Notes: generated by a model from the letters alone, not told the origin. A stretch of 64,000 nucleotides of DNA from Rhodanobacteraceae bacterium (GCA_016713135.1 JADJPR010000015.1:29080-93079); one strand, 5' to 3'; counted from the first letter of the stretch, positions 1,610 to 49,242 are shown. A program made the numbers and translations.

Positions 1610-2926
1610 CTACCCCACCGGCGGCAGCGCCTGGACCACGCGGTTGCGGCCGGCGCGCTTGGCCGCGTACAGCGCCGCATCGGCACGCGCGAAGAGTTCG
1701 CTCGGACTTTCGCCTGGCCGGTGCTGGGCGATGCCGGCCGAAAAGGTCGAGGCCACCGGCTCGCCGGCGACGCCGACTTCGATGCCGGCATAGCGTCGGC
1801 GCCAGGCCTCGATCTGACGTGCACCGTCGGCGGACTGGGATGCAGTCATGACCACCGCGAACTCCTCCCCGCCATAGCGGAAGGCGAGGTCCTGGGCGCG
1901 GTTGTCGGCCAGCAGCACGCGCCCCAGTTCGGCGAGGAAGCGGTCGCCGACCGCATGCCCATGGCGGTCGTTCAACTGCTTGAAGTGGTCGATGTCGATC
2001 ATCGCCAGGCATGCCGGAATGCCGGCCTGCGCCGCGCGGGTCAGCTCGCGCTGCAGGATCTCGTCGAAATAGCGCCGGTTGTACAGCCCGGTCAGCGGGC
2101 AGCGAATCGCCTGCTCGCGCAACTGCCCGTGCAGCCGCTCGATCTCGGCGATGCGCTGGGCCAGCTCGTCGCGCGCCTCGCGCAACTCCTGTGCGGCGCG
2201 CACGCGCTCGGTCACGTCCTGCTTGATCGCGATGTAATGGCTGACGCGGCCGCGCTCATCCTTGACCGGCGCGATGGTCTGTTCCTCGAAATACTCGCTG
2301 CCATCCTTGCGCCGGTTGACGATGTCGCCATGCCAGACCTCGCCGGCGCGCAGGGCGGACCACAGCCGCGTGTAGAAGTCCGCATCGTGGCGACCGGACT
2401 TGAGCAGGCTCGGGCGGGCGCCGATCAGTTCTTCGGGGGTGTAGCCGGTCATGCGGCATACCGCCGGATTGACTCGAACGATCAGGCCCTCCGCATCGGT
2501 GACCAGCACCCCGCTGGCCGCGGCATCGATCGCCACCGACAGCAGGCGCACCTTCTGCTGCGCCGCGCGGCTGGCGCTGACCTCGCGCATCGCCACCAGC
2601 ACCTGGCGCTGGTCGCCCAACTGCAGGGGCCTGAGCGCGATGTCGACCGGCACCTCGCTCCCGCTGCGGTGCACTGCCGTCAGTTCCATGCCGCTGGCCA
2701 TCGGCCGGTGCGAAGGGTTGGCCATGTAGCCCTCGCGCAGCCGCGAGTGATCGGTCACGCGCAGCGGCACCAGGCACTCCATCAGGCGGCCCTGCAGATC
2801 CTCCGCGCGCCAGCCGAGCAGGGTGTCGCACATGCGGTTGGCGTAGCGGATCACGCCGCCGGCATCGACGAGCACCACGGCATCCGGAAACAACTCCAGC
2901 CAGCCGGTGTCGGTGAGATCGGTCAT
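1610..2926 (-). CDS. PAS-PAS-GGDEF diguanylate cyclase
   Basis: ORF 1610..2962. Two PAS-like segments, then a GGDEF domain with RYGGEEF and an RxxD I-site (RAQD) five residues upstream. Start is ATG 2926 (MTDLTD) or ATG 2962. Confidence 0.85.
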   Translation of the reverse strand: MTDLTDTGWLELFPDAVVLVDAGGVIRYANRMCDTLLGWRAEDLQGRLMECLVPLRVTDHSRLREGYMANPSHRPMASGMELTAVHRSGSEVPVDIALRPLQLGDQRQVLVAMREVSASRAAQQKVRLLSVAIDAAASGVLVTDAEGLIVRVNPAVCRMTGYTPEELIGARPSLLKSGRHDADFYTRLWSALRAGEVWHGDIVNRRKDGSEYFEEQTIAPVKDERGRVSHYIAIKQDVTERVRAAQELREARDELAQRIAEIERLHGQLREQAIRCPLTGLYNRRYFDEILQRELTRAAQAGIPACLAMIDIDHFKQLNDRHGHAVGDRFLAELGRVLLADNRAQDLAFRYGGEEFAVVMTASQSADGARQIEAWRRRYAGIEVGVAGEPVASTFSAGIAQHRPGESPSELFARADAALYAAKRAGRNRVVQALPPVG

Positions 2927-3036
2927 CGCGGCGCCCCCTGCGCATTGCAACGCCCAAGCCATCAGTCTGACGATTGCCCGATGCGTCTGCCTTGACCCGG
3001 CTTAAACTTGCGCGCTTTTCACTCCGGAGCCCCGCC

Positions 3037-4209
3037 ATGCGCCACCCCGCCCAGATCCGCATCCCGGCCACCTACATGCGCGGCGGCACCAGCAAGGGCG
3101 TGTTCTTCCGCCTGGCGGACCTACCGGTGGCGGCGCAGCGGCCGGGGCCGGCGCGCGATGCACTGCTGATGCGCGTGATCGGCAGCCCGGACCCGTATGC
3201 CAAGCACACCGACGGCATGGGTGGCGCCACCAGCAGCACCAGCAAGTGCGTGATCATCGGGCCGGCATCCGTGCCGGATCATGATGTCGATTACCTTTAC
3301 GGCCAGGTGGCGATCGAACAGGCCTTCGTCGATTGGTCCGGCAACTGCGGCAATCTGTCGAGCGCGGTCGGGCCGTTCGCGATCGCCAACGGATTCATCG
3401 ATCCTGCCCGGGTGCCGCGCGACGGCATCTGCACCGTGCGCATCTGGCAGGCCAACATCGGCAAAACCATCGTTGCGCATGTGCCGGTGAGCGCTGGCCA
3501 GGTGCAGGAAACCGGCGACTTCGAGCTCGACGGCGTGACCTTCCCGGCGGCCGAGATCGTGCTCGAGTTCCTCGACCCGGCCGAAGATGATGGCGAAGGC
3601 GGCTCGATGTTCCCGACCGGCAAGCTGGTCGACGATCTGGACGTCCCGGGAGTGGGCACCCTGAAGGCGACCATGATCAACGCCGGCATCCCGACTGTCT
3701 TCGTCAATGCCGCCGACATCGGCCTGGCCGGAACCGAGCTGCAGCCCGAGATCAACGGCGACTCCGCACGCCTGGCCATGTTCGAAGCGATCCGCGCCCA
3801 CGGTGCTCTGCGCATGGGCCTGATCAAGGACCTCGGCGAGGCCGCCACCCGCCAGCACACGCCGAAGATCGCCTTCGTCGCGCCGCCGCAGCCTTACTTG
3901 GCATCGAGCGGCAAGCGCATCGAGGAGGCCGAGGTGCTGGTGCGCGCGCTGTCGATGGGCAAGCTGCACCACGCGATGATGGCCACCTGCGCCGTCGCCA
4001 TCGCCACCGCCGCCTCGGTGCCCGGCACCCTGGTCAACCACGCCGCCGGCGGCGGCCCGCGCGAGTCCGTGCGCTTTGGCCATCCCTCCGGCACCCTCAG
4101 GGTCGGCGCGAAAGCCGAGTTCAAGGAGGGTCAGTGGAGCGTCACCAAGGCGATCATGAGCCGCAGCGCGCGGGTGCTGATGGAGGGGTGGGTGCGCGTG
4201 CCCTTGTAG
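3037..4209 (+). CDS. PrpF/GalD-family isomerase (2-methylaconitate isomerase-like)
   Basis: MRHPAQIRIPATYMRGGTSKGVFF... is the characteristic PrpF N-terminus. About 390 aa. No prpBCD or acnD neighbours, so substrate is unknown. Confidence 0.8.
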   Translation: MRHPAQIRIPATYMRGGTSKGVFFRLADLPVAAQRPGPARDALLMRVIGSPDPYAKHTDGMGGATSSTSKCVIIGPASVPDHDVDYLYGQVAIEQAFVDWSGNCGNLSSAVGPFAIANGFIDPARVPRDGICTVRIWQANIGKTIVAHVPVSAGQVQETGDFELDGVTFPAAEIVLEFLDPAEDDGEGGSMFPTGKLVDDLDVPGVGTLKATMINAGIPTVFVNAADIGLAGTELQPEINGDSARLAMFEAIRAHGALRMGLIKDLGEAATRQHTPKIAFVAPPQPYLASSGKRIEEAEVLVRALSMGKLHHAMMATCAVAIATAASVPGTLVNHAAGGGPRESVRFGHPSGTLRVGAKAEFKEGQWSVTKAIMSRSARVLMEGWVRVPL

Positions 4210-4210
4210 A

Positions 4211-4415
4211 GGGTTGTGGGTTCTGGGTTGTGGGTTGTGGGCGGCAACAGCCCGGTGTGCTGAAGCGCTTGCGGGAGCGGCTTCAGCCACCATTTTTCGC
4301 GCTGAGCCGGGGAAAGATCGCCGACAGAGTCGGCTCCGACGGGCCACGGCGTGCGAGCTTCGCTGCCACAACCCACAACCCACAACCCACAACCCACAAC
4401 CAGAACCCACAACCC
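4211..4415. repeat. Family-A element A1: (GGGTTGT)n arm, REP-doublet core, (ACAACCC)n arm
   Basis: Left arm 4211-4241 gggttgtgggttctgggttgtgggttgtggg. Right arm 4366-4415 ccacaacccacaaccc... is its complement. Core contains gggagcggcttcagcc and gatcgccgacagagtcggctcc. Starts 1 nt after the prpF-like stop. Confidence 0.9.
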
Positions 4416-4475
4416 TCAGACCCCATACCTGTGCCACAGTCCCGCCTTCCACCCACCAACCCGATCGAGCACCCC

Positions 4476-5198
4476 ATGGCCGACCCCATTCGCCTGTCCA
4501 GGCATCTCGCCGCGATGCTGCCGTGCTCGCGCCGGGAGGCGGAGCTTTACATCGCCGGCGGCTGGGTGAGGGTGGATGGGGTGGTCGTCGAGGAACCCCA
4601 GTTCCGCATCACCGATCAGAAGGTGGAACTGGACCTTGGTGCGCAGGCCGAGCCGGCGTTGCCGGCGAGCATGCTCTGGCACAAGCCCGCGGGCGTGGAC
4701 GCCGATGCGCCGGCTGATCCGGCATCGCCGCTGATCCAGCCAGGTTCGCGCGCCGCGGACGATGCCTCGGGGGTTCGGCTGCTGCGCCGCCACTTCACCC
4801 ACCTGGAATCGGTGGTGCCGATCGACGCCGCGGCCAGCGGTCTGGTCGTGCTGACCCAGGACCGCCACCTGGCGCGCAAGCTCAAGGATGACTTCGCGCG
4901 CTTCGAGCAGGAGTACGTCGTCGAGGTCAGCGGCGACATGCCGGCCGATGGCCTGGCGCGGCTGCAGCGCGGCGCGGGCATCCAGCCCTACGGTCCGGCA
5001 GCGATCAAGGCCAGTTGGCAAAGCGAAAAGCGCCTGCGCATCGCCGCCAAGGCGATCCGCCCGGGCCAGGTGCGCCAGATGTGCGAGGCGGTCGGGCTCC
5101 AGGTGGTCGCCATGCGCCGGATTCGCGTCGGGCGGCTGCCGATGGCCAGGCTGGCGGTGGGCGAGTGGCGGTACCTGGCTCCGGACGAGCGGTTGTAG
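4476..5198 (+). CDS. RsuA/RluF-family pseudouridine synthase (S4 domain plus catalytic domain)
   Basis: MADPIRLSRHLAAMLPCSRREAELYIAGGWVRVDG (S4-like). The PIDAAASGLVVLT motif carries the catalytic Asp. The 5' part of ORF 4134..5198 is translated repeat A1. Confidence 0.8.
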   Translation: MADPIRLSRHLAAMLPCSRREAELYIAGGWVRVDGVVVEEPQFRITDQKVELDLGAQAEPALPASMLWHKPAGVDADAPADPASPLIQPGSRAADDASGVRLLRRHFTHLESVVPIDAAASGLVVLTQDRHLARKLKDDFARFEQEYVVEVSGDMPADGLARLQRGAGIQPYGPAAIKASWQSEKRLRIAAKAIRPGQVRQMCEAVGLQVVAMRRIRVGRLPMARLAVGEWRYLAPDERL

Positions 5199-5209
5199 CT
5201 TGGAATCGA

Positions 5210-5362
5210 GTTGTGGGTTGTGGGTTCTGGGTTGTGGGCAGCAAGAGCGCGGGCGGCGGGGGCTAGTCGCCGGCTGCTTCTGCGCACGAATTCACGCAGT
5301 GGCTCCGGACTGGCCGCACCCAGCTTTGGCTGCCCACAACCCAGAACCCACAACCCACAACC
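5210..5362. repeat. Family-A element A2
   Basis: 5210-5238 gttgtgggttgtgggttctgggttgtggg is the perfect 29-nt reverse complement of 5334-5362. Diverged 94-nt core. Confidence 0.9.
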
Positions 5363-5398
5363 ATCAGAATCCCCTGGCGCACAACCGAACGATCACCA

Positions 5399-7282
5399 TC
5401 ACACCACCGCCAGATCCCCCTTGGTCTCCAGCCATTCGCGGCGGTCGCTGGCGCGCTTCTTGGCGAGCAGCATGTCGAGCATGCCGTCGGTGCCGTCGGC
5501 GTCGTCGATGGTCAGCTGCACCAGGCGGCGGGTGTCGGGGTGCATGGTGGATTCGCGTAGCTGCTGCGGATTCATCTCGCCGAGGCCCTTGAAGCGGGTC
5601 ACGTTGACCTGGCCCTTGATCTTCTCGCGCGCGACGCGTTCCAGCAGTTCGGTCTTCTCGCTCTCGTCGAGCGCGTAGAACACCTGTTTGCCCACGTCCA
5701 CGCGGAACAGCGGCGGCATCGCGACGAACACGTGGCCGGCCTGCACCAGGCTGCGGAAGTGGCGCTGGAACAGGGCCGAGAGCAGGGTGGCGATGTGCAG
5801 GCCGTCCGAGTCGGCATCGGCCAGGATGACGATCTTGCCGTAGCGCAGCCCGGACAGATCCGGCTTGCCGGGGTCGAGGCCGATCGCGACCGCCAGGTCG
5901 TGCACTTCCTGCGAGGCCAGCACCGAGGTCGATTCGACTTCCCAGGTGTTCAGGATCTTGCCGCGCAGCGGCAGGATCGCCTGGAACTCGCGCTCGCGCG
6001 CCTGCTTGGCCGAGCCGCCGGCGGAATCGCCCTCGACCAGGAACAGCTCGGTGCGCCCGAGGTCCTGCGAGGCGCAGTCGGCCAGCTTGCCGGGCAGGGC
6101 CGGGCCGCTGGTGACCTTCTTGCGCACCACCTGCTTCTCGGTTTTCAGGCGTGCCTGCGCGCGCTCGATCGCGAGCATCGCGATCTTCTCGCCGAGTTCG
6201 GTGTGCTGGTTCAGCCACAGGCTGAAGGCGTCATGGATCACGCCCTGCACGAAGGGCGCGGCGGTGCGCGAGGACAGGCGCTCCTTGGTCTGCCCGGCGA
6301 ACTGCGGATCCTGCTGCTTGAACGAGAACACGAAACTTAAGCGCTCCCAGATGTCCTCGGGTGCCAGCTTTACTCCGCGCGGCAACAGGTTGCGGAACTC
6401 GCAGAACTCGCGGATTGCGTCGGTCAGCCCGGAGCGCAGGCCGTTGACGTGGGTGCCGCCCTGCGCCGTCGGGATCAGGTTGACGTAGCTTTCCTGGATC
6501 AGCTCGCCCTCGGGCGTCCAGCCGATCGCCCAGTCGGCGGCCTCGGTGGTCTTCTTGATCGCGCCGGTGAAGAGGTCGGCTGGGATCACCTCGCGGTCGG
6601 CCAGTTGCGAGCGCAGGTAGTCCTTGAGCCCGTCCTCGTAGTACCAGCGCTCGGTCTCGTTGGTCGATTCGTCCCACAACGTGACCGTCAGCCCCGGGCA
6701 AAGCACCGCCTTGGCACGCAGCACGTGGCGCAGCCGTGGCATCGACAGCTTGGGCGTGTCGAAATACTTCGCGTCCGGCCAGAAGCGCACCTTGGTGCCG
6801 GTGTTCTTCTTGCCGACGGGACCGACCACGCGCAGCGGCGTGGCCGGGTCGCCGTGCGCAAAGCCGATCGAAAACTCCTGCGCATCGCGCTTGATCGTGA
6901 CCTCGACGCGCTCGCTGAGCGCGTTGACCACCGACACGCCCACGCCGTGCAGGCCGCCCGAGAAGTTGTAGTTCTGGTTCGAGAATTTCCCGCCCGCGTG
7001 CAGCCGGCACATGATCAGCTCGACGCCGGGCACCCCGTGCTCGGGATGGATGTCCACCGGCATGCCGCGGCCGTCATCGATGACCTCGATCGAGCCATCG
7101 TTCCAGACCCGGACCTCGATGTTCTTCGCGTAGCCACTCAGCGCCTCGTCCACCGAGTTGTCCACGACCTCCTGCACCAGGTGATTCGGGCGCGTGGTGT
7201 CGGTGTACATGCCCGGCCGGCGCTTGACCGGCTCCAGGCCTTGCAGGACTTCGATATCGGCAGCGTTGTAGCGGGCGGTCAT
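5399..7282 (-). CDS. parE: DNA topoisomerase IV subunit B
   Basis: GHKL ATPase motifs (VVDNSVDEA, DDGRGMP, GGLHGVG) and Toprim EGDSAGG. About 627 aa without the GyrB insertion. ATG at 7282 (MTARYNAADIEVL); the upstream part of ORF ..7468 is translated repeat A3. Confidence 0.95.
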   Translation of the reverse strand: MTARYNAADIEVLQGLEPVKRRPGMYTDTTRPNHLVQEVVDNSVDEALSGYAKNIEVRVWNDGSIEVIDDGRGMPVDIHPEHGVPGVELIMCRLHAGGKFSNQNYNFSGGLHGVGVSVVNALSERVEVTIKRDAQEFSIGFAHGDPATPLRVVGPVGKKNTGTKVRFWPDAKYFDTPKLSMPRLRHVLRAKAVLCPGLTVTLWDESTNETERWYYEDGLKDYLRSQLADREVIPADLFTGAIKKTTEAADWAIGWTPEGELIQESYVNLIPTAQGGTHVNGLRSGLTDAIREFCEFRNLLPRGVKLAPEDIWERLSFVFSFKQQDPQFAGQTKERLSSRTAAPFVQGVIHDAFSLWLNQHTELGEKIAMLAIERAQARLKTEKQVVRKKVTSGPALPGKLADCASQDLGRTELFLVEGDSAGGSAKQAREREFQAILPLRGKILNTWEVESTSVLASQEVHDLAVAIGLDPGKPDLSGLRYGKIVILADADSDGLHIATLLSALFQRHFRSLVQAGHVFVAMPPLFRVDVGKQVFYALDESEKTELLERVAREKIKGQVNVTRFKGLGEMNPQQLRESTMHPDTRRLVQLTIDDADGTDGMLDMLLAKKRASDRREWLETKGDLAVV

Positions 7283-7347
7283 CGGGTGTGCGGCGGGTTG
7301 CGTTGGGCCGGCATGCTGCAGCGTGCGGGGCGGGGAAGCAACCGGCT

Positions 7348-7525
7348 GGTTGTGGGTTGTGGGTTGTGGGCCGCGAGCTCGCACACCGCAGCCATGTGGG
7401 AGCCGACTCTGTCCGCGATCTCTTCCTGGCGGCCGCCGACAAGAGATCGCGGCTGAAGCCGCTCCCACCGGCTATCGGCACCCAGGCTCTTGCCGCCCAC
7501 AACCCACAACCCAGAACCCAGAACC
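7348..7525. repeat. Family-A element A3 (core inverted relative to A1)
   Basis: Left arm 7348-7370 ggttgtgggttgtgggttgtggg. Right arm 7496-7525 cccacaacccacaacccagaacccagaacc. The reverse complement of the core aligns with the A1 core (gtgggagcggcttcagccgcgatc ... gacagagtcggctcccac). Confidence 0.9.
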
Positions 7526-7559
7526 AAAGAAAAGGCCCCGGAGTCTCCCCCGGGGCCTT
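7524..7559 (-). terminator. Rho-independent terminator of the 1021-aa gene
   Basis: Perfect 10-bp stem aaggccccgg/ccggggcctt (7532-7541, 7550-7559) with an 8-nt loop. Followed on the minus strand by TTTTCTTTGG. Confidence 0.8.
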
Positions 7560-7593
7560 CAGTTACCGCAGTGTGGCTAGATGGCTAGCCGCA

Positions 7594-10500
7594 TCAACCA
7601 TCCGTGCGCAGGCTGACGGTGTCGACCCGGAAGGTCGTCGCCAGCGAGCTGTCGGTGGAGCCGACGAAGCGGATGCGCACGTTCTTGCCCTTGTGCGCCA
7701 CGACGTTGTAGCTGCGCTGCACGTAGGTGGACGCGTTGGTGGTCTTGTTGACGTTCGACAGGGTCACCAGGGTCTGCAGCACCGCGTTCGTGCTCGCATC
7801 GACCAGCTGCACGGTCAGCTTGTCATAAGCCGTCGTGGTGGTGGTCTCGCTGGTCACGATCGAGGTGTAGAAGCTCAGCGTGGCCTGGGTCGCGCCGGCC
7901 GGGATCAGCGTGGGCTGGCTCTGCACCGTCTGCGAGCTGGTGGTCGCATTGACGCCGAGGTAGGCATAGCTGCCACCGGTGTTGGCATTGGTCTGGCCGG
8001 CCAGCAGGGTGTTGAACGAGGTGCCGGTCGAGGCCGAGCGGGCCCAGGAACCATCCGGCGCCGAGTTGGTGCTGGTGGTGATCGTGTCGAAGTTACCGTT
8101 GGCCAGCTTCTCGGTGACCGTGCCGCCGCCACCGCCGCCGGTGGTCCAGGAGGCCGTCACGTTGAAGGTCAGGGTGCCGGTGGCGTAGCCGTAGACGCGG
8201 ACGTAGTAGGTGCCGACGGTCGGCGTGGCGAAGGTGCAGGTCTCATTGCCCGAGCCAGTGTACGGACGGCAGTCGTATACCGTCAGCGTGGCCTGGGCGC
8301 CGGCCTTCACATACAGGTCGACGTCGCCCGACGCACCGCTGGTGGCGATGGTCAGGTTGGACGCACCGGACGGGATCGCCACGGTGTAGTCCTTCCAGCT
8401 GCTGTTGGCACTGGTGGAGTTGGTGGAACCCGCGGAAGCCACGCCGTTGCTCAGCGCGGTGGCGCCGCCGGTGGTCGCCGTGCCAGTGAAGTTCTGGCCG
8501 GTGCTGTTGGCGCTGGAGATCGTCACCGAACGGTTGGCCGGGCTGAAGGTGTAACCCGACAGCGACGGGGTGACGGTGTAGCTGCCATTGGCCAGGCCGG
8601 AGATGGTGTAGGCGCCGGTGCTGCTGGTGGTCGCGCTGGCCGAGCCGGTGCTGACGGTGACGCCCGAGATGCCGGTGCCGCCGCTGGTGGTCACGGAGCC
8701 GGAGATGCTGTAGGTCGTGGTCGTCGCGGTGCCGGTGAAGTTCTGGCCGGTGACGTTGCTGCTGCCGATGGTCACGGCGCGGTTGACCGGGCTGAAGGTG
8801 TAGCCCGAACGGGTCGGCGTGATCGTGTAGCTGCCGGAGGCCAGGTTGGCCAGGGTGTAGTTGCCGCTCGAATCGGTGGTGGTGGAGACCGAGCCGGTGC
8901 TCACGGTGACGCTGCCGATGCCGACGCCGGTGCTGGTGGTGACCTGGCCGGAGATCGAGTAGGTGGTCACGGTGCCGCCGCAGTTGCTGAACTTGAAGTC
9001 GCGGGCGCGGGTGGACCAGCTGCCACTCGGGCGGTACATGCCGATGGTCCAGAAGGTGCAGTCGTCCACCGGATCGACCACCGTCTGGTGGTAGTCGCCC
9101 CAGCGGCCGGAGGTCTCGGCGGCGGCGCCGGCGGCGATCACGTTCTCACCCTGGGTCATCACGCCCAGCGCGTCGGTGACCAGGCGGCCGGTGTACTGCA
9201 GCGAGGCATAGGTGGTCGGCGTGGTGGTGCGGCTGACGTTGTAGCTCATGCCGATGTTGCCCATCTTGTCGGTCGCCGCGGCGCCGAGCAGGTGATGGGT
9301 GCTGCTGTCGCCCGGGCTGAAGGTGCCTTCCTGGTGCAGCGTCCAGTTGCCGCCGCCGGTGCGGCGCAGTTCGAACCAGCGCACGCCGGAGTCGACCACG
9401 GTGCCGCTGCGCGCGGTGTTCTGGTTGGTCGCGAAGGTGCCCACGATGGTCTCGTAGGAGCCCATGTTGCGGTAGTTCATCAGGTTCAGGATGACTTCGC
9501 GGATCGGGTCGAGGCGCGAGGTCGAACCCGGCTGCGGCACGGTGTCGAACGAGGAGTAGTCGCGGAACCAGCTGTTGAACTCGGTGATCTGGATGCGCGG
9601 CAGGGTGGTGATGCTGCTGCTCGACGGCGTGGTCCAGTTGAAGTTGAGCTGGTATAGGTCGATGAAGTCGGCGGTGGTGTTGGCGCCGGTGCCCGCATGG
9701 GCTTCGTCATCGTTGTGGCGGGCCAGGATCGCACCCGAGCCGGCCGGCGGGGCCGTGGTGCCCATGAACGAGGCCGGGGTCAGCGCCTGGAAGCCATAGC
9801 CCGAGAGCTTGGCGACACTGGTGAAGCGCTGCGCGGCGCGCGCGGTGGCGCCATTCAGCATGTTTGCGCGGTCGAAGGCATAGACCTTGGCGCCGCTGCC
9901 AGATTCGTTGGCGGTGCAGACGTAAGCGTCGCCCCACACACCGCAATGCGGGTAGTCGGGCAGCGCCGGGGTGGCGAAGCCGTAGAACCACCAGCCGCCG
10001 GAGACCGGGTCGGAGGTCTTCGACACGTAGGTGCACAGGCGGTTGGCGCTGGAGGTGCCGCCCATTTCGAGCATGAACCAGCGGTTCGCGAGGCGATCGA
10101 ACAGGATGATCGGATCCGACACCGAGGTGGCACAGGGATCGCCGGCCGGGGCCAGCGACTTGAAGGTGGTCGGGCCGGACACCAGTGTGCCGGACTTGTT
10201 GTACACCTTGAAGGTGGTGCCGGACGAGCTGTTGATGCCGTACAGGATGTGGTTCGTGCCGACTTCGATCACCGGGTCGCCAGGGCTGACGCCGGTATTG
10301 CCGTTGTCGATGTTGATGCGAGCCGGGCCGCGGAACGACACGTCGCCGGCGCTGCGCGAGCTGCTGTCGAACAGCGCCTGCAACTCGCCCAGGCGGTCGG
10401 GGGCGGTAGTCCAGTCGGCCGGCGCATGCGGCGCGCGGGCGTCCAGCGGGTGATACACGCGGCGCTGGGCTTCGCGAATGGGCTGGCCGGGTTGCCACAT

Positions 10501-10659
10501 CGCGGCCGTCGGCAGGTTGCGCAGATCGACGTCGATGCCAACGGGCGTCACCGGTTCCCCAACCGACACGCCGTTGCCGTTGCTGAGCCCCTGGGCGACC
10601 GCGCCGGTGCCGACCGCAGTCAGCGCCAGTGCTGCCACCAAAGCTAGATGCTTCTTCAT
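7594..10659 (-). CDS. Large secreted multidomain protein (unknown N-terminal domain, 3 CarboxypepD_reg/Ig-like repeats, PPC domain, C-terminal beta-sandwich)
   Basis: Signal peptide MKKHLALVAALALTAVGTGAVAQG. Three ~85-aa repeats (YSISG.VTTS.G.GI.GVTVSTGS...SGYTFSP.NR.VTI.S.N.TGQNFTGTA). DVDLYVKAG...YYVRVYGY resembles a pre-peptidase C-terminal domain. Confidence 0.75.
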   Translation of the reverse strand: MKKHLALVAALALTAVGTGAVAQGLSNGNGVSVGEPVTPVGIDVDLRNLPTAAMWQPGQPIREAQRRVYHPLDARAPHAPADWTTAPDRLGELQALFDSSSRSAGDVSFRGPARINIDNGNTGVSPGDPVIEVGTNHILYGINSSSGTTFKVYNKSGTLVSGPTTFKSLAPAGDPCATSVSDPIILFDRLANRWFMLEMGGTSSANRLCTYVSKTSDPVSGGWWFYGFATPALPDYPHCGVWGDAYVCTANESGSGAKVYAFDRANMLNGATARAAQRFTSVAKLSGYGFQALTPASFMGTTAPPAGSGAILARHNDDEAHAGTGANTTADFIDLYQLNFNWTTPSSSSITTLPRIQITEFNSWFRDYSSFDTVPQPGSTSRLDPIREVILNLMNYRNMGSYETIVGTFATNQNTARSGTVVDSGVRWFELRRTGGGNWTLHQEGTFSPGDSSTHHLLGAAATDKMGNIGMSYNVSRTTTPTTYASLQYTGRLVTDALGVMTQGENVIAAGAAAETSGRWGDYHQTVVDPVDDCTFWTIGMYRPSGSWSTRARDFKFSNCGGTVTTYSISGQVTTSTGVGIGSVTVSTGSVSTTTDSSGNYTLANLASGSYTITPTRSGYTFSPVNRAVTIGSSNVTGQNFTGTATTTTYSISGSVTTSGGTGISGVTVSTGSASATTSSTGAYTISGLANGSYTVTPSLSGYTFSPANRSVTISSANSTGQNFTGTATTGGATALSNGVASAGSTNSTSANSSWKDYTVAIPSGASNLTIATSGASGDVDLYVKAGAQATLTVYDCRPYTGSGNETCTFATPTVGTYYVRVYGYATGTLTFNVTASWTTGGGGGGTVTEKLANGNFDTITTSTNSAPDGSWARSASTGTSFNTLLAGQTNANTGGSYAYLGVNATTSSQTVQSQPTLIPAGATQATLSFYTSIVTSETTTTTAYDKLTVQLVDASTNAVLQTLVTLSNVNKTTNASTYVQRSYNVVAHKGKNVRIRFVGSTDSSLATTFRVDTVSLRTDG

Positions 10660-10781
10660 GGATATCGTTCCTGAATGAGTAAGAACTGGATCAAGTGCTG
10701 CTCTCGATGGTCACTTGTCGCAGTCATGGTCCCTGGGAGCGTCTCATCGAGTTCCCCGCCTCGCTGTCCCAACTCCGGCCG

Positions 10782-11907: not shown

Positions 11908-12058
11908 GCCACGAGGTCAAGAGGGCACGAGGGCACGAGGGCACGCCAGGACCTCATCCCAGGCCCGGCCTCGTCTCACCGCGATAGCGGTTGAAAAACA
12001 AGCACAATCAGTTACTTGCAAAGGTCCAGACGAGAGCGAGCCTTTTCGTGCCCTCGCG
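11908..12058. repeat. Family-D element D1: (GAGGGCAC)n arm, conserved ~100-nt core, CGTGCCCTCGCG arm
   Basis: gagggcacgagggcacgagggcacg at 11921-11945. The core is ~75% identical to the D2 core, including agcacaatcagttacttgcaa. The right arm ends at 12058 and directly abuts the yceH stop codon (12059-12061). Confidence 0.9.
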
Positions 12059-14429: not shown

Positions 14430-14707
14430 GCGGGGCAGGGGGCAAGGGGGCAGGGGACCTGTTTTGCGGCTTTGCGGATGCAATGAGGTGAGACGCGGCA
14501 CTGGGCCTTGAGTCCAGAGCGGCTACGCGGCCAGGTCACTGCGGCAAGCCATTCCCCTTGCCACGTGACCCTTGACCCGCCTTTCATCCCCGCGCAGACC
14601 CGGTTCAGACATGTCCCGCTAGCGTCCGCGGGGCCTGGAATCCAAACCGCGGCGCGGCCAGGCCAGCGCGGCAAGCCTTTTCCCCTGCCCCCTGACCCTT
14701 GCCCCGC
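14430..14707. repeat. Family-B element B1: (GGGGCA)n arm, core, C-rich arm, with duplicated right half
   Basis: Left arm 14430-14457 gcggggcagggggcaagggggcagggga. Complementary arms at 14553-14580 and 14681-14707. The 56-nt segments 14526-14581 and 14653-14708 are direct repeats. Confidence 0.88.
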
Positions 14708-19261: not shown

Positions 19262-19411
19262 CAAAAGTGAAAAGTGAAACGTAAAACGTCAATTCGCCCC
19301 GCGCCCATTGACGTTTTCCGTTTCACGTTTGACCTTGCTTGCGGAGGAACAACTTCTGGCATCAGATCCGGCCCAGGCCCATTGACGTTTCACGTTTGAC
19401 TCTGCTTGCGG
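19262..19411. repeat. Family-F element F1: (GTGAAAA/C)n hairpin with duplicated right half
   Basis: gtgaaacgtaaaacgtcaat (19274-19293) pairs with attgacgttttccgtttcac (19307-19326), one mismatch, 13-nt loop. gcccattgacg...tttcacgtttgac.ctgcttgcgg occurs twice (19303-19344, 19377-19411). Confidence 0.85.
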
Positions 19412-30452: not shown

Positions 30453-33059
30453 ATGAACGAGGTCGCGGCGGTCACCATGCGCTGGATAGTCCTGAAGTTC
30501 GGCGGCACAAGTGTGTCGCGGCGGCATCGCTGGGAGAACATCGGCCGCCTGATGCGCGAGCGCCAGCAGCTTGGCGTGGGCGTGGTCACCGTGGTCTCGG
30601 CACTGTCGGGGGTCACCGACGCGCTCAAGGCACTGATCGCGCTGCACGGCGATCCGGCCGCCATGGCCGCGGCGGGCGAGGCGCTGATCGAGCGCCACCT
30701 GGCCTTCGCGCGGGATCTCGACGTCGCACCCGAAGTGCTCAACCATCGCGTCGCGGAGCTGCGCCGGCTGGTCGGCGATGTGCGTGCCGCGGCTGGCGGA
30801 CACGCCTGGCAGGCCGAAGTGCAGGCGCAGGGCGAGTTGTGGTCGAGCACTTTGGGCGCGCACTTCCTCGCGGGCCTTGGGATGGCGGTCAAATGGCTGG
30901 ATGCGCGCGATTACCTCACCAGCCGCGAGCAGGCGCTCGCCACCGAGTGGTCGCGCTACCAGAGCGCGATCTGCGAGCCGCGCCCGAGCCCGGCGGTGCG
31001 GCAGGACCTGGCCGCGCGCGGACAGATGTTCATCACCCAGGGCTTCATCGCGCGCCAGCCGGGCGGCGACACCGTGCTGCTCGGGCGCGGCGGCTCGGAC
31101 ACGTCCGCCAGCTACTTCGGTGCGCTGCTCGGCGCCGAGCGGGTGGAAATCTGGACCGATGTGCCGGGCATGTTCAGCGCCAACCCCAAGCAAGTACCGG
31201 ATGCACGCCTGTTGCGCCGGCTGGACTACGACGAGGCACAGGAAATCGCCACCACCGGCGCCAAGGTGCTGCATCCGCGCGCCATCGGCCCGGTGCGCGA
31301 GGTCAAGGTGCCACTGTGGATCAAGGACACCGAACGGCCCGAGTTGCCGGGCACCGAGATCGTCGCCGAGGCCGCCGGTGGCGCGCCCAGCATCAAGGCG
31401 ATCTCGCTGCGCAACGGCATCACCCTGGTGTCGATGGAATCGATCGGCATGTGGCAGCAGGTGGGCTTCCTCGCCGATGTGTTCGCCTGCTTCAAACAGC
31501 ACGGCCTGTCGGTGGACCTGATCGGCTCGGCTGAAACCAATGTCACGGTGTCGCTGGACCCGAGTGACAACCTGCTCGACGCCGGCACCCTGGACGCGCT
31601 GTGCCGCGACCTGGCGCGCGTCTGCCGCGTGCGCGTGATCGCGCCCTGCGCGGCGGTGACCCTGGTTGGCCGCGGCATGCGCGGGATGATGCACCGGCTG
31701 TCGGAGATCCTCGCCGAGATCGGCGCGCGCCGGGTGCACCTGGTGTCGCAGTCGTCCAACAACCTGAATCTTACCTTCGTCATCGATGCCGCCGACGCCG
31801 ACGGCGTGGTCCCCGCGCTGCACGCGCACCTGGTGCGCGAGGGCCTGACCGGCGCCGACGGTGACCCGGTGTTCGGCCCCTCCTGGCGTGCGCTGGAGCG
31901 CGTGCCGGAGCCGCCGCCGGTGCGCTGGTGGGAAAGCGCGCGGGCGGCGCTTCTGGCGCGCGCGCAGGCGCTGCCGACGCCGTGTTATGTCTACGCCGGC
32001 AGCATGCTGCGCGCCCGCGCAGCCGACCTGCTCGGACTCAAGTCGGTCGATCGCCGCTACTACGCGCTCAAGGCCAATCCACATCGGGAGATCCTGCGCA
32101 CACTCGCTGGACTCGGCTTCGGCATGGAGTGCGTGTCGCTCGGCGAACTGGACCATGTGCAGGCCACGCTGCCGGACCTGCCGCCGGAGCGCGTGCTGTT
32201 CACGCCGAATTTCGCGCCACGCGCCGAATACGCCGCAGCGCTGGCGCGCGGCGTGCGCGTGACGGTCGACAACCTGTCGCTGCTGGAGCGCTGGCCGGAG
32301 CTGTTTGTGGGGCGCGAGATCCTGCTGCGCTTCGACCTCGGCCGCGGTCTCGGCCACCACGACAAGGTCAAGACCGGCGGCGAGAAGAGCAAGTTCGGCA
32401 TTGCCGTGGCCGAGGTTGCCGCCGCCGCGCGCCTGGCGGCCGCCTGCGATGCGCAGGTGATCGGGCTGCATGCGCACCTCGGCAGCGGGATCTTCGACAT
32501 CGCGCACTGGAAGACGGTCTACGCCGACCTCGCCGGACTCGCGGATCGCTTCCCGGCAGTGCAGGCGCTCGACATCGGTGGCGGCCTGGGCGTGCCGCAC
32601 GAGCCGGGCGAACAGCCGCTCGCGCTGGCGGAACTGGATGCCGCGCTGGCTGGGGTCAAGTCGCTTTACCCGCGCTTCGAACTGTGGATCGAGCCCGGCC
32701 GCTACCTCGTCGCCGAGGCCGGCGTGGTGCTGACCCGCGTGACTCAGACCAAGCGCAAGAGTGGGGTGCAGTTCGTCGGTGTCGACGCCGGCATGCACAC
32801 CCTGCTGCGCCCGGCGCTGTACGACGCCTGGCACGAGATCGTCGACCTGAGCCGTCACGGCCAGCCAACTGGTGGCCGCTGGCAGGTCGTCGGCCCGATC
32901 TGCGAATCCGGCGACATCCTCGGCCGCGACCGCGCTCTGCCGGAGCCGCAGGAGGGCGATTTGATGCTGATCGCCAACGCCGGCGCCTACGGTGCGTCGA
33001 TGGCATCGCGCTATAACCTGCGCGAGGCGGTGCGCGAGGAGTGGGTGGATGAGTTGTGA
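30453..33059 (+). CDS. Bifunctional aspartate kinase / diaminopimelate decarboxylase (LysC-LysA fusion)
   Basis: N-terminus MRWIVLKFGGTSV (aspartokinase). The C-terminal half has YYALKANPH...GMECVSLGE and GAYGASMASRYN, typical of PLP Orn/DAP/Arg decarboxylases. This fusion is characteristic of Xanthomonas-type genomes. Start is ATG 30453 or 30477. Confidence 0.9.
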   Translation: MNEVAAVTMRWIVLKFGGTSVSRRHRWENIGRLMRERQQLGVGVVTVVSALSGVTDALKALIALHGDPAAMAAAGEALIERHLAFARDLDVAPEVLNHRVAELRRLVGDVRAAAGGHAWQAEVQAQGELWSSTLGAHFLAGLGMAVKWLDARDYLTSREQALATEWSRYQSAICEPRPSPAVRQDLAARGQMFITQGFIARQPGGDTVLLGRGGSDTSASYFGALLGAERVEIWTDVPGMFSANPKQVPDARLLRRLDYDEAQEIATTGAKVLHPRAIGPVREVKVPLWIKDTERPELPGTEIVAEAAGGAPSIKAISLRNGITLVSMESIGMWQQVGFLADVFACFKQHGLSVDLIGSAETNVTVSLDPSDNLLDAGTLDALCRDLARVCRVRVIAPCAAVTLVGRGMRGMMHRLSEILAEIGARRVHLVSQSSNNLNLTFVIDAADADGVVPALHAHLVREGLTGADGDPVFGPSWRALERVPEPPPVRWWESARAALLARAQALPTPCYVYAGSMLRARAADLLGLKSVDRRYYALKANPHREILRTLAGLGFGMECVSLGELDHVQATLPDLPPERVLFTPNFAPRAEYAAALARGVRVTVDNLSLLERWPELFVGREILLRFDLGRGLGHHDKVKTGGEKSKFGIAVAEVAAAARLAAACDAQVIGLHAHLGSGIFDIAHWKTVYADLAGLADRFPAVQALDIGGGLGVPHEPGEQPLALAELDAALAGVKSLYPRFELWIEPGRYLVAEAGVVLTRVTQTKRKSGVQFVGVDAGMHTLLRPALYDAWHEIVDLSRHGQPTGGRWQVVGPICESGDILGRDRALPEPQEGDLMLIANAGAYGASMASRYNLREAVREEWVDEL

Positions 33060-33069
33060 GAAGCCAGGA

Positions 33070-33206
33070 GCGGGGCAGGGGGCAGGGGGCAAGGGGAATT
33101 GCCAAGGCTTCGGACATGCCCCGGATTCATGGCCGAGCGCCTCCATTCGCCCCAGTGGGGTTCGAGCCTTGAGGCAGCGGCCCCTGCCCCTTGCCCCTTG
33201 CCCCGC
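33070..33206. repeat. Family-B element B2
   Basis: Left arm gcggggcagggggcagggggcaagggga (33070-33097). Right arm cccctgccccttgccccttgccccgc (33181-33206). Fills the lysC/lysA to PP-loop intergenic gap. Confidence 0.9.
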
Positions 33207-33224
33207 CTTTCCGAGCCTCACGAC

Positions 33225-34565
33225 ATGACCCAACCCCGCCCCACCGCCACGACCTTCCGCCTGACCGACTGCCGTTACGCCGACGGAGAGGTGTTGCTCG
33301 GCTATGCCTTCGACGATGGCGCCACGATGTTCGAGCGCATCCGCTTCCCTGGCGCGCCGGCGGCGGTGCCGGCGGGGCGCGAGGCGGCGTTCGCCCGGGC
33401 GCTGGCACTGCTGCACGGGATCGCGGGCGTCAGCTACTACAAGGCACTGGTCCCGGAGCGTATCGAAGTGGCCGGTGAGGCTTTCGATCCGGCGCTGGCG
33501 ACGCTGCTGGACGAGGTCTGGCTGCATGGCCTTGGCGAGTTCGCGCATCACAACGGCCTGGACTTGCGCGGGCGGATCCGCTTCCCGCATGGCGCGGAAC
33601 CAGCACCCGCGGCAGCTGCGCTTGGCCTGCCGCGGCGCGCGCTGGTGCCGATCGGTGGCGGCAAGGATTCGCTGGTCAGCATCGAGACGCTCAAGCGCGC
33701 GGGCGATCCGGTCGCGGTGGTGTGGATCGGCCGCAGCGAACTGATCCGCGCCTGCGCCCAGGCCACCGGGCAGCCGCTGCTGAACATCGAGCGCGAGATC
33801 GCGCCGGAACTGTTCGAACTCAATCGCCGTGGCGCCTGGAACGGCCACATCCCGGTCACCGCGATCAACTCGGCGATCCTGACCCTGGCGGCGCTGCTCT
33901 ACGGCTACGACGAGATCGTGTTTTCCAACGAGGCTTCGGCGAGCGTCGGCAACCTCGTCAGCAACGAACTCGACATCAACCACCAGTGGAGCAAGGGCCT
34001 GCGCTTCGAGACCCTGTTCGCCGGCTACCTGCGCGACGCGGTAGCTGCCGACCTGCGCTACTACTCGCTGCTGCGGCCGTTCTCCGAACTGGCGGTGACC
34101 GAGCGTTTCGCCCGGTTGACCCGCTATCACGGGCTGTTTTCCAGCTGCAACCGCAATTTCCGCATCCTCGGCGACAAGCCCTCCTCGCGCTGGTGCGGCG
34201 AGTGTCCGAAATGCCGTTTCGTGTTCCTCGCGCTGGCGCCGTTCATGAGCAAGCCCGCGCTGCTGACGATCTTCGGCCGCAACCTGCTGGACGAGCCGGA
34301 GCAAGTGGCGGGTTTCGATGCGCTGCTCGAATTCGGCGCGGTCAAACCCTTCGAATGCGTGGGCGAGGGCCGCGAATCCCGCGCCGCGCTGCTCGCGCTG
34401 AGCCAGCGCGCCGACTGGCGCGAGGACGCTCTGGTGCGGCGCTTCGTCGACGAGGTGCTGCCGGCGATCGATCCCTCCGGGCTCGAGCTGCCGCCACTGC
34501 TGCGGCCTTCCGGAGAGCACCACGTTCCGGCGAGGCTGTGGGCGGCGCTGGGCCTGGAATCCTGA
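33225..34565 (+). CDS. PP-loop (GGGKDS) ATP-pyrophosphatase-superfamily protein of unknown specificity; possible MurL-like enzyme
   Basis: ATG 33225 (MTQPRPTATTF). ALVPIGGGKDSLVS resembles the SGGKDS PP-loop. CGECPKC motif near the C-terminus. 446 aa. Confidence 0.6.
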   Translation: MTQPRPTATTFRLTDCRYADGEVLLGYAFDDGATMFERIRFPGAPAAVPAGREAAFARALALLHGIAGVSYYKALVPERIEVAGEAFDPALATLLDEVWLHGLGEFAHHNGLDLRGRIRFPHGAEPAPAAAALGLPRRALVPIGGGKDSLVSIETLKRAGDPVAVVWIGRSELIRACAQATGQPLLNIEREIAPELFELNRRGAWNGHIPVTAINSAILTLAALLYGYDEIVFSNEASASVGNLVSNELDINHQWSKGLRFETLFAGYLRDAVAADLRYYSLLRPFSELAVTERFARLTRYHGLFSSCNRNFRILGDKPSSRWCGECPKCRFVFLALAPFMSKPALLTIFGRNLLDEPEQVAGFDALLEFGAVKPFECVGEGRESRAALLALSQRADWREDALVRRFVDEVLPAIDPSGLELPPLLRPSGEHHVPARLWAALGLES

Positions 34566-34568
34566 GCC

Positions 34569-34796
34569 GGTTGTCGGTAGGCGGTTGTGTCGGCAGCAGC
34601 CGATGTGCCCTGAGCCCGTGGGAGCGGCTTCAGCCGCGATCTTTTCCCGGCGGCTGCTGGAGAAGATCGCCGACAGAGTCGGCTCCCACAGGTGTGTCGG
34701 TGTTCGAGCCTTGCTGCCCAGAACCCAGAACCCACAACCCACAACCCACAACCCACAACCCACAACCCACAACCCACAACCCACAACCCACAACCC
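34569..34796. repeat. Family-A element A4 with asymmetric arm expansion
   Basis: Degenerate left arm ggttgtcggtaggcggttgtgtcgg. REP doublet 34618-34689 (gtgggagcggcttcagccgcgatc ... gatcgccgacagagtcggctcccac). Right arm 34717-34796 is about 11 heptamers of CCCA(C/G)AA. Confidence 0.9.
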
Positions 34797-34876
34797 GGCT
34801 AGATCCTGCCCGCCATCCAATCCACCACCTCGGGCTGCCGGGCATACTTGGCCACTGAACCTCCCGGAACCCGCGC

Positions 34877-38575: not shown

Positions 38576-38576
38576 A

Positions 38577-38710
38577 CGCGGAGACGCGGAGGGCGCGGAG
38601 AAAAGGCCGCGGAAAGCGTCTGGGAGTGGGCTCCAGGGAAATTCCGAAACGCTAGTGTGGTGTTCCGTAATTACCTTGAATTATTTCCGCGCCTTTTGCG
38701 CCGATGCGGC
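38577..38710. repeat. Element H1: (GCGGAGAC/GCGGAGGG)n arm with partner arm about 70 nt downstream
   Basis: acgcggagacgcggagggcgcggagaaaaggccgcggaaagcg (38576-38618). aaaaggccgcggaaa pairs with tttccgcgcctttt (38684-38697). Starts 1 nt after the hydrolase stop. Confidence 0.7.
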
Positions 38711-38890
38711 GTTGCTCGTCGTCGCCATAGCCCTGCTATGACCTCCGGTTCCGGCCCGCAACCAGTTGCGGGCGTTCAAGCCGGCGCGCGGCATGCCGCG
38801 CAAGCCGCCGGCTTTCACCCTCCTCTCGCCTTGCCTCGCCGCAAAATTCATCGGAAATTTCTTCAACTAAATTACGGAACACCACACTAG
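38652..38890. mobile_element. MITE-like element, 239 bp, perfect 21-bp terminal inverted repeats
   Basis: ctagtgtggtgttccgtaatt (38652-38672) is the exact reverse complement of aattacggaacaccacactag (38870-38890). Both ends carry CTAG. The interior has no ORF and is locally AT-richer. Confidence 0.55.
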
Positions 38891-38916: not shown

Positions 38917-39067
38917 GTGGGAGCGGCTTCAGCCGCGATCTTTTCCCTGCGGCGGCTGGAAAGGTCGCCGACAGAGTCGGCTCCCACAGGCTGGCGGTGT
39001 GCAGGCTCTGCTGCCCACAACCCACAACCCACAACCCACAACCCGCCCACAAACCCACAACCCGCCC
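38917..39067. repeat. Family-A element A5 (REP doublet plus right arm only)
   Basis: gtgggagcggcttcagccgcgatc...gtcgccgacagagtcggctcccac, then cccacaacccacaacccacaacccacaacccgcccacaaacccacaaccc (39014-39067). The left heptamer arm is missing next to the MITE-like element. Confidence 0.88.
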
Positions 39068-49206: not shown

Positions 49207-49242
49207 TTTCTCAGGCCGTCCCGCTTACCCTTTAGGTGATCC

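Follow-up and report, generated by a model that had tools for sequence, protein, structure and literature searches.

Tandem-repeat-armed palindromes, some with REPIN cores, at the gene boundaries of a 64-kb Rhodanobacteraceae sequence

Many bacteria are enriched in heptamer microsatellites, and those of Xanthomonas form convergent pairs that have been unexplained since 2015. Two Xanthomonas genomes hold 186 and 183 arrays of GGGAATC-type heptamers, and 70-75 arrays are close inverted pairs in convergent orientation; the arrays are transcribed, differ in length between species at preserved sites, and form G-quadruplexes (G4s) in vitro, and the study that described them found no function and reported no association with mobile elements (Rehm et al. 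2015, PMC4692102). Here, we describe three elements of related design, A1 (4211-4415), A2 (5210-5362), and A3 (7348-7525), in a 64,000-nucleotide stretch of DNA from Rhodanobacteraceae bacterium (GCA_016713135.1, JADJPR010000015.1:29080-93079), all of which we refer to as the window. They lie between prpF, a 723-nt gene for a pseudouridine synthase-like protein of 240 amino acids (aa), parE, and a gene for a 1021-aa protein. A1-A3 are real copies of a very abundant and rapidly changing population of noncoding hairpin DNA built in two layers (i.e., a frame of tandem-repeat arms and the core enclosed by it), and this population is genome-wide in its host, an uncultured Xanthomonadales (Lysobacterales/Rhodanobacteraceae-like) bacterium.

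The outer layer resembles the heptamer simple sequence repeat pairs of Xanthomonas campestris and Xanthomonas axonopodis, which are likewise mostly intergenic tandem GGGNNNN heptamers of 2 to >10 units, often about four, set as close inverted pairs near stop codons with the G-rich run first on each strand; in both systems the site is kept while length varies, and the arrays match the G4 motif. The two differ in their unit, which is GGGTTGT here (GGTTGTC or GGTTGTT in relatives) and GGGAATC or GGGANTN there, and in that the present population uses several unrelated units, including 8-, 9-, and 14-mers incapable of forming a G4, and can carry a doublet of repetitive extragenic palindromes (REPs) between its arms. 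Conserved inner junctions, inversion of the core, and turnover of families are undescribed for the Xanthomonas pairs. The inner layer resembles REPs and their hairpin-forming doublets, or REPINs (Nunvar et al. 2010, PMC2817692; Bertels & Rainey 2011, PMC3116915): in A1, A3, and two further copies (34.6 kb and 38.9 kb), the core consists of two inverted REPs, each with a GTGG head, a GA dinucleotide, and a 14- to 15-nt palindrome, that together make one hairpin. Unlike described REPINs, these have flanks of about 25 nt and heptamer arms, A2 has no REP at all, the same REP is normally armless elsewhere, and no gene for a REP-associated tyrosine transposase (RAYT) was seen in the scan of the window.

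Other repeat classes share fewer of these features. Enterobacterial bacterial interspersed mosaic elements are also mosaics of inverted REPs and short conserved motifs that lie at the 3' ends of genes or in convergent gaps and are transcribed in mRNAs, but they have fixed linker motifs where the present elements have expandable, mutually pairing microsatellite arms. The short tandemly repeated repetitive (STRR) heptanucleotides of heterocystous cyanobacteria and the TAACTGA repeats of Beggiatoaceae are abundant intergenic tandem heptamers with lineage-specific units, but they are mainly single direct arrays, and paired inverted arrays are rare among them (PMC4679880). Miniature inverted-repeat transposable elements (MITEs), such as Correia/NEMIS and the enterobacterial repetitive intergenic consensus, are short noncoding palindromic repeats at gene boundaries that are cotranscribed and in some cases RNase III substrates; they are, however, conserved over their full length, with fixed terminal inverted repeats and target duplications, whereas here only the arms are shared, unit number is variable, and no duplication is seen. 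In total, both layers, the heptamer pair of the arms and the REPIN of the core, are of already known kinds. In the open-access literature, we found neither a follow-up to the 2015 study nor a description of REPs nested in heptamer pairs, and what appears undescribed there is the nesting of a REPIN in a heptamer-armed frame with an invertible core, the many unit families that share one architecture within a genome, and the persistence of occupied sites during turnover of their occupants, along with a polarity rule that holds strictly over about a dozen unit families and two proteobacterial classes. The architecture is independent of any single unit sequence and of the capacity to form a G4, and the part that is maintained is the arms and not the cores; REPINs nest in frames and can be gained, lost, or flipped. 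A vague "abundant repeat" thereby becomes a set of testable hypotheses.

A search for period-7 arrays with Tandem Repeats Finder, together with a repeat search, recovered A1, A2, and A3 at the positions given by the original prediction, filling three consecutive gene boundaries and placing an element on either side of the 723-nt gene. In each of them the two arrays are reverse complements of one another, giving an outer stem of the form (GGGTTGT)n ... (ACAACCC)n. The 17-mer GGGTTGTGGGTTGTGGG, with two or fewer mismatches, has 31 matches in the window versus 0.00 in dinucleotide-preserving shuffles, and the REP 20-mer GTGGGAGCGGCTTCAGCCGC, with three or fewer mismatches, has four matches versus 0.04 expected. 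Folding of the full elements, which had been proposed as a check, yields a single long hairpin for each, with RNA free energies (dG) of -126.7 (A1), -115.1 (A2), and -114.8 kcal/mol (A3) and z-scores of -8.8, -11.7, and -9.2; folded as DNA, A2 gives -65.5 kcal/mol (z, -12.1). The perfect 29-nt stem that had been claimed for A2 is correct for its heptamer part, and perfect pairing extends to 33 nt (5210-5242 with 5329-5361). The cores of A1 and A3 are, as had been claimed, homologous and inverted, being 81% identical as reverse complements and 68% identical in the forward orientation. The further claim of a core made of a REP-like doublet preceded by a GTGGGAGC head holds for A3 and, in degenerate form, for A1 (REP heads GCGGGAGC and CTCCGAC), but not for A2, which has no REP doublet.

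Five family-A copies in the window have a frame in common: a (GGGTTGT)n arm, the inner junction GGC(A/G)GCAA(G/C)AGC, and on the opposite side GCT(C/T)TTG(C)TGCC followed by (ACAACCC)n. The REP doublet is bordered on each side by ~25 nt of conserved flank, with the heptamer arms outside. A2 has the arms and the junctions without the REP, and thus family A is composite, a heptamer-armed palindrome that usually carries a REPIN. The 94-nt interior of A2 has no match elsewhere in the ~1.9 Mb of sequence compared, and the window and nine related loci have no match in Rfam at gathering thresholds. An origin of A2 by layering, in which new A-type arms formed around a decayed B-type palindrome, was considered, and a three-way alignment with two relatives (L002 and L081) was not decisive. 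The core sites of integron attC sites, 5' RYYYAAC ... GTTRRRY 3', bound an imperfect palindrome after a cassette gene. We reject this identity for the present elements, in which the order of the arms is reversed (GTTGTGG first and CCACAAC last) and GTTGTGG does not fit GTTRRRY.

How unusual is a run of three occupied boundaries? A codon-usage gene model of the window (51 genes, with one shadow open reading frame [ORF] corrected), which we preferred over two crude GC3-based finders, leaves 35 intergenic regions of at least 30 nt, and 15 of these hold palindromes armed with short tandem repeats. Three consecutive occupied boundaries are therefore unremarkable, and the adjacency of three copies of the same family is mildly nonrandom (P = 0.006 among all regions and 0.076 among occupied regions). 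Occupancy is 10 of 18 for tandem, 3 of 6 for convergent, and 2 of 10 for divergent regions (that is, 13 of 24 tandem or convergent regions versus 2 of 10), with one further unoccupied region unclassified, and most elements begin 0 to 12 nt past a stop codon. At least six unit families are present in this one window (Table 1). The family-A copies have a core of ~125 nt in common and the two family-C copies share part of theirs, while the cores of A2 and of the B, D, and E copies are unique, with only the arms repeated.

The REPINs can be separated from the frames. The doublets in A3, at 34618-34689, and at 38917-38987 are made of the inverted REPs GTGGGAGCGGCTTCAGCCGCGAT and GTGGGAGCCGACTCTGTCGGCGAT, with the format GTGG-GA-GCGGCTTCAGCCGC-GA and GTGG-GA-GCCGACTCTGTCGGC-GA, which is degenerate in A1 and absent from A2. 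The RAYT-associated REPs of Pseudomonas and Xanthomonas have the same format, in which a GT(A/G)G head is followed by a GA dinucleotide and a palindrome (PMC2817692). The paired heads lie at 7396/7468, 34618/34689, and 38917/38987, and the doublets of A1 and A3 fold as one hairpin, i.e., as a REPIN. The window has four REP sites, and all of its intact REPINs are inside family-A frames. In a scan of metagenome contigs, the exact REP 23-mer is found in at least 120 stretches from many organisms, with 105 sites far enough from contig ends to judge; among the matches listed, 14 of these 105 have any array of 6- to 10-nt units nearby, and only 2 (L100 and L194) have inverted heptamer arms. Both of the latter come from relatives within one project: L194 overlaps the window at ~91% identity, and L100 has the arm unit of the window. 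In relatives, REPINs of another type (GTGGGTCCAGACTTGTCTGGAC) lie within or beside frames of families A and B, and at the lysA-murL boundary two relatives (L209 and L212) have a REPIN and the window and L194 have none. REPINs are thus optional occupants of the frame, and from their co-location they appear to end up at the hairpin apex. No RAYT (Y1_Tnp) or other transposase was found among 25 window proteins in a scan that was not exhaustive, and 64 kb would probably miss a single-copy gene. As a separate observation, the family-A heptamer run (e.g., 4211-4241) includes the hexamer TGTGGG, with which the REP consensus TGTGGGAGC also begins (heads at, e.g., 7396-7403); this overlap may be a coincidence because the variant unit GGTTGTC of L081 lacks it.

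The closest relative found, L081 (GCA_963853445.1), has a ParE protein that is 99% identical, with DNA that is only 83-92% identical, and is therefore a congeneric species. Its gene order is the same (GGDEF, prpF, the 240-aa gene, parE, and a gene for a 1023-aa protein), and this shared order goes with occupied boundaries whose occupants differ in unit, in presence of a REPIN, or in orientation of the core. Over the shared region, all five boundaries that are occupied in the window are occupied in L081, and all three that are empty are empty (Fisher, 1/56). At the prpF boundary, the entire L081 core is inverted relative to that of A1 (78% identity as the reverse complement). A more distant relative, L002 (ParE, 95%), keeps the order of the 240-aa gene, parE, and the large gene, with GGGGCAT/GTGCCCC arms at the first of these boundaries and another REPIN with (AACAACC)2 at the second. 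In a lineage with 92% ParE identity (L082-L087), the order is large gene, fpg, parE, and adh; the 240-aa gene is absent there and is found on another contig of the same assembly (L003, from the assembly of L084), without family-A arms at that locus. Based on these differing neighbors, the position of the 240-aa gene relative to parE changed in deeper history. Two side observations concern the same region. L081 has an extra TPR-GGDEF gene (2621-4456) between the fumarase and DUF480 genes that is lacking in the window. In L083, a relative with 58% GC, about 16 drifting heptamers (GTTGGTA to GTTGCTG to GTGGCTG; 2166-2340) run from 4 nt past the DUF480 stop codon in a very lopsided array with only about two complementary units downstream; the window and L081 have an occupant at this site too.

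Comparison at finer grain indicates which parts of an element change and how quickly. L194 and the window are ~100% identical over about 800 nt (34250-35053) apart from two extra units in the 3' arm of L194, and unit number therefore changes faster than bases are substituted. Over the longer interval 32951-35053, the identity of the two is ~90-93% up to ~34200 and then ~100% to the contig end, a mosaic that suggests a recent recombination tract ending inside murL. Comparing the window with L194 at the family-B element that precedes murL gives ~92% conservation for the arms and outer flanks and only ~50% for the core. Arm lengths can be very unequal (2 versus 10 units). The two arms change together, staying complementary while the unit drifts. 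At two boundaries, GGGTTGT/ACAACCC in the window corresponds to GGTTGTC/GACAACC in L081; at lysA-murL, the window and L194 have GGGGCAG/CTGCCCC arms, L209 and L212 have GGGGCAG-to-GGGGCAC/GTGCCCC arms and a REPIN, and L208 (MurL, 96% identical) has GAGGGCAC/GTGCCCTC arms with an unrelated core. In a pattern of concerted evolution, each genome uses a unit variant of its own at multiple loci (GGGTTGT for the window and for both L100 and L194; GGTTGTC for L081). Between A1 and its L081 orthologue, the flanks are inverted along with the REPIN; that is, the whole segment between the arms flips, as expected of recombination or template switching between inverted repeats of 25-50 nt that lie ~125 nt apart. 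Occupants turn over as well. At murL-permease, the window and L194 carry family A, L208 carries an A-like frame (GGTTGTT/GGTTGTC) around a different core, L212 carries family D, and L209, in which the stop and start codons overlap, carries nothing; at the junction of the permease with the gene that follows, L209 and L212 have an element and the window has none. Filled and empty junctions are too divergent between lineages to place insertion end points or target duplications.

The elements also have a direction. In a symmetric search for inverted array pairs in 1.8 Mb of sequence, the purine-rich arm is 5' in 24 of 25 pairs and G exceeds C in the 5' arm of 21, with the sole exception in purine content (GGTTGTC) still having more G than C; the 25 pairs span about a dozen unrelated units and two proteobacterial classes. 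Because a palindrome reads alike on both strands, this polarity is an intrinsic property of the element. Rehm et al. gave the orientation of the GGGAATC arrays as "convergent," without comment (PMC4692102). The second class is represented by a betaproteobacterial palindrome, AAACCTTTTAGC(CACAGAGnn)3, a variable unrelated core of 13-110 nt, and (nnCTCTGTG)3GCTAAAAGGTTT, that has sharply defined ends, mostly three units per arm, spacers of 1-2 nt that are not complementary, and no Rfam match. It is found in Gallionellaceae, Nitrosomonadales, and Hydrogenophilales contigs (L045, L047 [10645-10737], L049, L055, L057, L059, L078, and L015) that had been gathered for another purpose. Is the polarity that of an RNA? 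For nine elements between same-strand genes, sense and antisense RNA folds have 48 versus 44 G-U pairs and a summed dG of -792 versus -774, and given this lack of asymmetry, the comparison cannot tell an RNA constraint from a DNA constraint. Two other sources of polarity were considered and rejected. Chi-like arms would, with this polarity, offer RecBCD the G-rich strand in the correct sense as it moves away from a break in the core, but the many unrelated units cannot all be Chi; telomerase-like templated addition of repeats at a break would give G-first polarity, but there is no evidence for it and many templates would be needed.

Based on sequence comparison, we favor with moderate confidence a model in which these elements would be self-perpetuating, near-neutral structured intergenic repeats that occupy the promoter-free space after stop codons and act as, at most, weak transcript punctuation. 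In this model, slippage would change arm length, the symmetry of the arms and the flipping of the core would both come from template switching or recombination between the arms, the current unit variant of the genome would be spread by ectopic conversion or copying from locus to locus, and a RAYT would insert REPINs at the hairpin apex. The paired arms would form a long hairpin or cruciform, and the elements would persist in the only free space of compact genomes, the promoter-free stretch past a stop codon. On expression, they would probably act at most as a REP-like hairpin in the mRNA does (as a barrier to 3' exonucleases or a substrate of RNase III), permitting read-through. Several points weigh against this model. 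The polarity, which no symmetric process acting on DNA would predict, hints at a constraint that has a direction and is probably transcriptional. The better conservation of arms than of cores, with units common to many loci and related genomes, could mean selection on the arms and not only homogenization, and the maintenance of site occupancy across ~12-15% nucleotide divergence could reflect function and not permissiveness. Moreover, no event of transposition, conversion, or slippage has been observed directly, and the 25 window proteins scanned include no RAYT.

Could the elements instead be selected as transcript punctuation, in the form of bidirectional, U-tract-independent devices that terminate, pause, or process transcripts at gene ends? 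The original prediction had offered punctuation as one of two roles, and we regard it as a minority possibility. It is the only reading that explains the universal polarity naturally, given that a pyrimidine-rich 3' arm would make a weak RNA:DNA hybrid while the stem closes or, alternatively, a C-rich arm would be hidden from Rho, its partner having been made first; surplus C-rich units would in turn act as Rho utilization (rut) sites, and G-free, C-rich tracts of 70-95 nt on the sense RNA (window 34717-34796; L081) look like such sites. It is also consistent with the start of most elements just past stop codons, with the retention of sites between species though the sequence changes, with the complementarity held through changes of unit, and with the finding that transcripts start or stop at the Xanthomonas heptamer repeats more often than at control repeats (PMC4692102). 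For A1-A3 themselves, punctuation applies weakly and as a matter of position: the boundaries are occupied in the congeneric genome, and A1 and A2 begin 2-11 nt after stop codons. A role as intrinsic terminators is rejected, as these elements have no terminator-like features. A search of 2900-7700 gave only one clear intrinsic terminator, that of the 1021-aa gene, which lies outside A3 such that A3 is beyond it, and none in A1-A3; the bases that follow the stems (TCAGAC for A1, ATCAGA for A2, and AAAGAA for A3) include no T-run that would give a U-tract. Sister copies must, in addition, be read through, since the 3' arm of the bamB-der copy is ~32 nt from the der start, others are ~20 nt from the murL and mscK-like starts, and one lies between the fadB-like stop and the fadA-like start. 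Sense-strand folding is no better than antisense folding, and Rehm et al. found no regulatory role for the Xanthomonas repeats (PMC4692102).

A MITE-like reading, in which tandem transposase-binding heptamers would serve as terminal inverted repeats and the elements would be mobilized in trans and insert after stop codons or into resident copies, is rather unlikely. Families A, B, D, and E at nonorthologous sites in related genomes would fit it, as would the core sharing within families A and C, the clustering of family A, the sharp ends of the AAACCTTTTAGC(CACAGAGnn)3 family, and the filled and empty junctions (murL-permease has an element in the window, L208, and L212 but not in L209, and the reverse is true of the next junction for the window and L209). 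Nonetheless, the A2, B, D, and E cores are unique, A1-A3 show no target-site duplications, direct flanking repeats, or conserved outer ends, arm lengths are highly unequal and vary as microsatellites do, and at least six unit families in 64 kb would need many transposases or a structure-specific one, with none seen among the window proteins in the scan described above. It is doubtful that the arrays exist for four-G-tract G4s (with i-motifs on the other strand) that regulate transcription or replication. They do account for 17 of the 20 canonical G4 motifs of the window, the A1 and A2 5' arms have at least four GGG tracts and match (G3N4)x4, as does the minus strand of all three 3' arms (predicted G4), and the related Xanthomonas repeats form G4s in vitro and prefer four units (PMC4692102). 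Yet the same architecture, polarity, and placement are found in families unable to form a G4 (CGCAAAGGA, GTGAAAA, GGAAAAG, and CACAGAG), the GGTTGTC variant of L081 has no GGG tract, and a complementary arm nearby favors the hairpin. The other role in the original prediction, a recombination cassette whose shared arms would let the 723-nt gene be excised, moved, or inverted, we consider very improbable. The A1 3' arm and A2 5' arm do form 38-nt inverted repeats 791 nt apart, the two 5' arms form 43-nt direct repeats around the gene, and the neighbors of the gene differ among more distant relatives. In the synteny comparison that had been suggested, however, L081 and L002 both match the window in where the gene lies and how it is oriented relative to parE, with which it is convergent, and only the ~125-nt core between arms flips; in the 92%-ParE lineage it is found elsewhere without family-A arms, and such elements flank many genes of the window. 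Finally, we speculate that palindromes armed with short tandem repeats of 7- to 9-nt units could be a distinct and widespread class of bacterial intergenic element, neither REP nor MITE, in which the purine/G-rich arm is always 5', the arms coevolve around free cores, and sites stay occupied while occupants turn over; polarity would then reflect a directional, transcription-linked function, and the apex would be a preferred landing pad for REPINs. This proposal is tentative. The function would be, e.g., U-tract-independent 3'-end formation or evasion of Rho from both sides, and the class may span Xanthomonadales, with many unit families, and Gallionellaceae/Nitrosomonadales, with (CACAGAGnn)3 ... 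(nnCTCTGTG)3.

Table 1. Features of the window and, for five boundaries, the occupants in the window and in the congeneric relative L081
Feature	Position	Strand	Composition and context in the window	Occupant in L081
PrpF	3037-4209	+		
A1 5' arm	4211-4241		(GGGTTGT)4.4 including one GGGTTCT unit; begins 2 nt past the prpF stop (4207-4209)	
A1 core	4242-4365	+	frame junctions GGGCGGCAACAGCC ... GAGCTTCGCTGCC plus degenerate REP doublet	
A1 REP-a	4271-4290		GCGGGAGCGGCTTCAGCCAC	
A1 REP-b	4320-4340		GCCGACAGAGTCGGCTCCGAC	
A1 3' arm	4366-4415		(CCACAAC)7.3; 60 nt before the start of the pseudouridine synthase-like gene	
S4 + PseudoU_synth_2 protein	4476-5198	+	240 aa (723-nt gene)	
A2 5' arm	5210-5238		(GTTGTGG)4.1; 11 nt past the stop of the 240-aa gene	
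A2 core	5239-5332		frame junctions GGCAGCAAGAGC / GCTTTGGCTGCC; no REP; unique sequence	
A2 3' arm	5333-5362		(CCCACAA)4.3; 36 nt before the parE stop codon; genes convergent	
ParE	5399-7282	-		
A3 5' arm	7348-7370		(GGTTGTG)3.3; 65 nt upstream of the parE start (7282, minus strand)	
A3 core	7371-7495	-	intact REP doublet, orientation opposite to A1, plus flanks	
A3 REP	7396-7416	+	GTGGGAGCCGACTCTGTCCGC	
A3 REP	7449-7468	-	GTGGGAGCGGCTTCAGCCGC	
A3 3' arm	7496-7525		(CCCACAA)2(CCCAGAA)2	
Canonical intrinsic terminator of the 1021-aa gene	7531-7560	-	13-bp stem + T-tail; abuts A3, outside the element	
PPC/CarboxypepD_reg protein	7594-10659	-	1021 aa	
Family A			GGGTTGT; five copies in the window	
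Family A, fourth copy	34569-34796	+	murL-permease boundary; decayed 5' arm; intact REP doublet 34618-34689; 3' arm (CCCACAA)11.4 at 34717-34796	
Family A, fifth copy	38917-39067	+	REP doublet 38917-38987; 3' arm only (39014-39067)	
Family B	14432-14705		GGGGCAG/CTGCCCC; internal decayed arms	
Family B, further copy	33072-33204			
Family B, further copy	49115-49210		bamB-der boundary	
Family C	50640-50825		8-mer GAGGGCAC/GCCCTCGC; 3' arm abuts stop codon at 50826	
Family C, second copy	11910-12058			
Family D	54025-54160		9-mer CGCAAAGGA/TCCTTTGCG	
Family E	19263-19330		GTGAAAA/GTAAAAC units	
Family E-related half-element	39577-39611			
14-mer unit	30.1 kb		AGGTGAAGCGGGGG	
GGAAAAG-type units	40966-41060		between fadB-like stop and fadA-like start, within operon	
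prpF / 240-aa boundary			A1, (GGGTTGT)n + degenerate REPIN	(GGTTGTC)2 - REPIN - (GACAACC)2
240-aa / parE boundary			A2, no REPIN	(GGTTGTC)2 - intact REPIN - (GACAACC)10
parE / large gene boundary			A3, family A + REPIN	small family-E palindrome (GTRAAAC)3 ... (GTTTYAC)3, by the same terminator
DUF480 / 269-aa boundary			family C	family B-like
fumarase / mscK-like boundary			family B	family D

The arrays bear on annotation as well. They have no stop codon in any frame, and long shadow ORFs, apparent gene fusions, and inflated ORF lists are the result. One example is the 1365-aa ORF at 39666-43763 on the minus strand, an artifact that fuses the fadB-like gene to the fadA-like thiolase gene across the palindrome at 40966-41060. 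The window also holds, at 38643-38890, an element of ~250 nt with perfect 23-nt inverted-repeat ends, CTAGTGTGGTGTTCCGTAATTAC ... GTAATTACGGAACACCACACTAG, that has the look of a MITE and adjoins a half family-A element. Short (ACGCGGAG)n arrays at 38576-38600, directly after a stop codon, and at 63726-63742 may be a further unit family or decayed arms.

The genes that flank A1-A3 are those named in the original prediction, with the exception that its label "rluF-like" is only approximate: the label is loose because the 240-aa protein scores under every NCBIfam cut-off for RluF, RsuA, and RluB. A few Xanthomonadales metagenome-assembled genomes have homologues of this protein at 64-73% identity, and the closest otherwise are betaproteobacterial (Gallionella, Sideroxydans, and Sulfuricella; 50-56%). 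Between A1 and the start of this gene, a palindrome-containing motif, CCTGTGCCACAGTCCC (4430-4446), is kept in L081 (12890-12906) despite the differing adjacent element and may be an operator or promoter element. The terminator of the 1021-aa gene is kept in L081 and L002, and the gene itself holds a 249-nt tandem duplication at 8470-8955 (2.0 copies, 76% identical).

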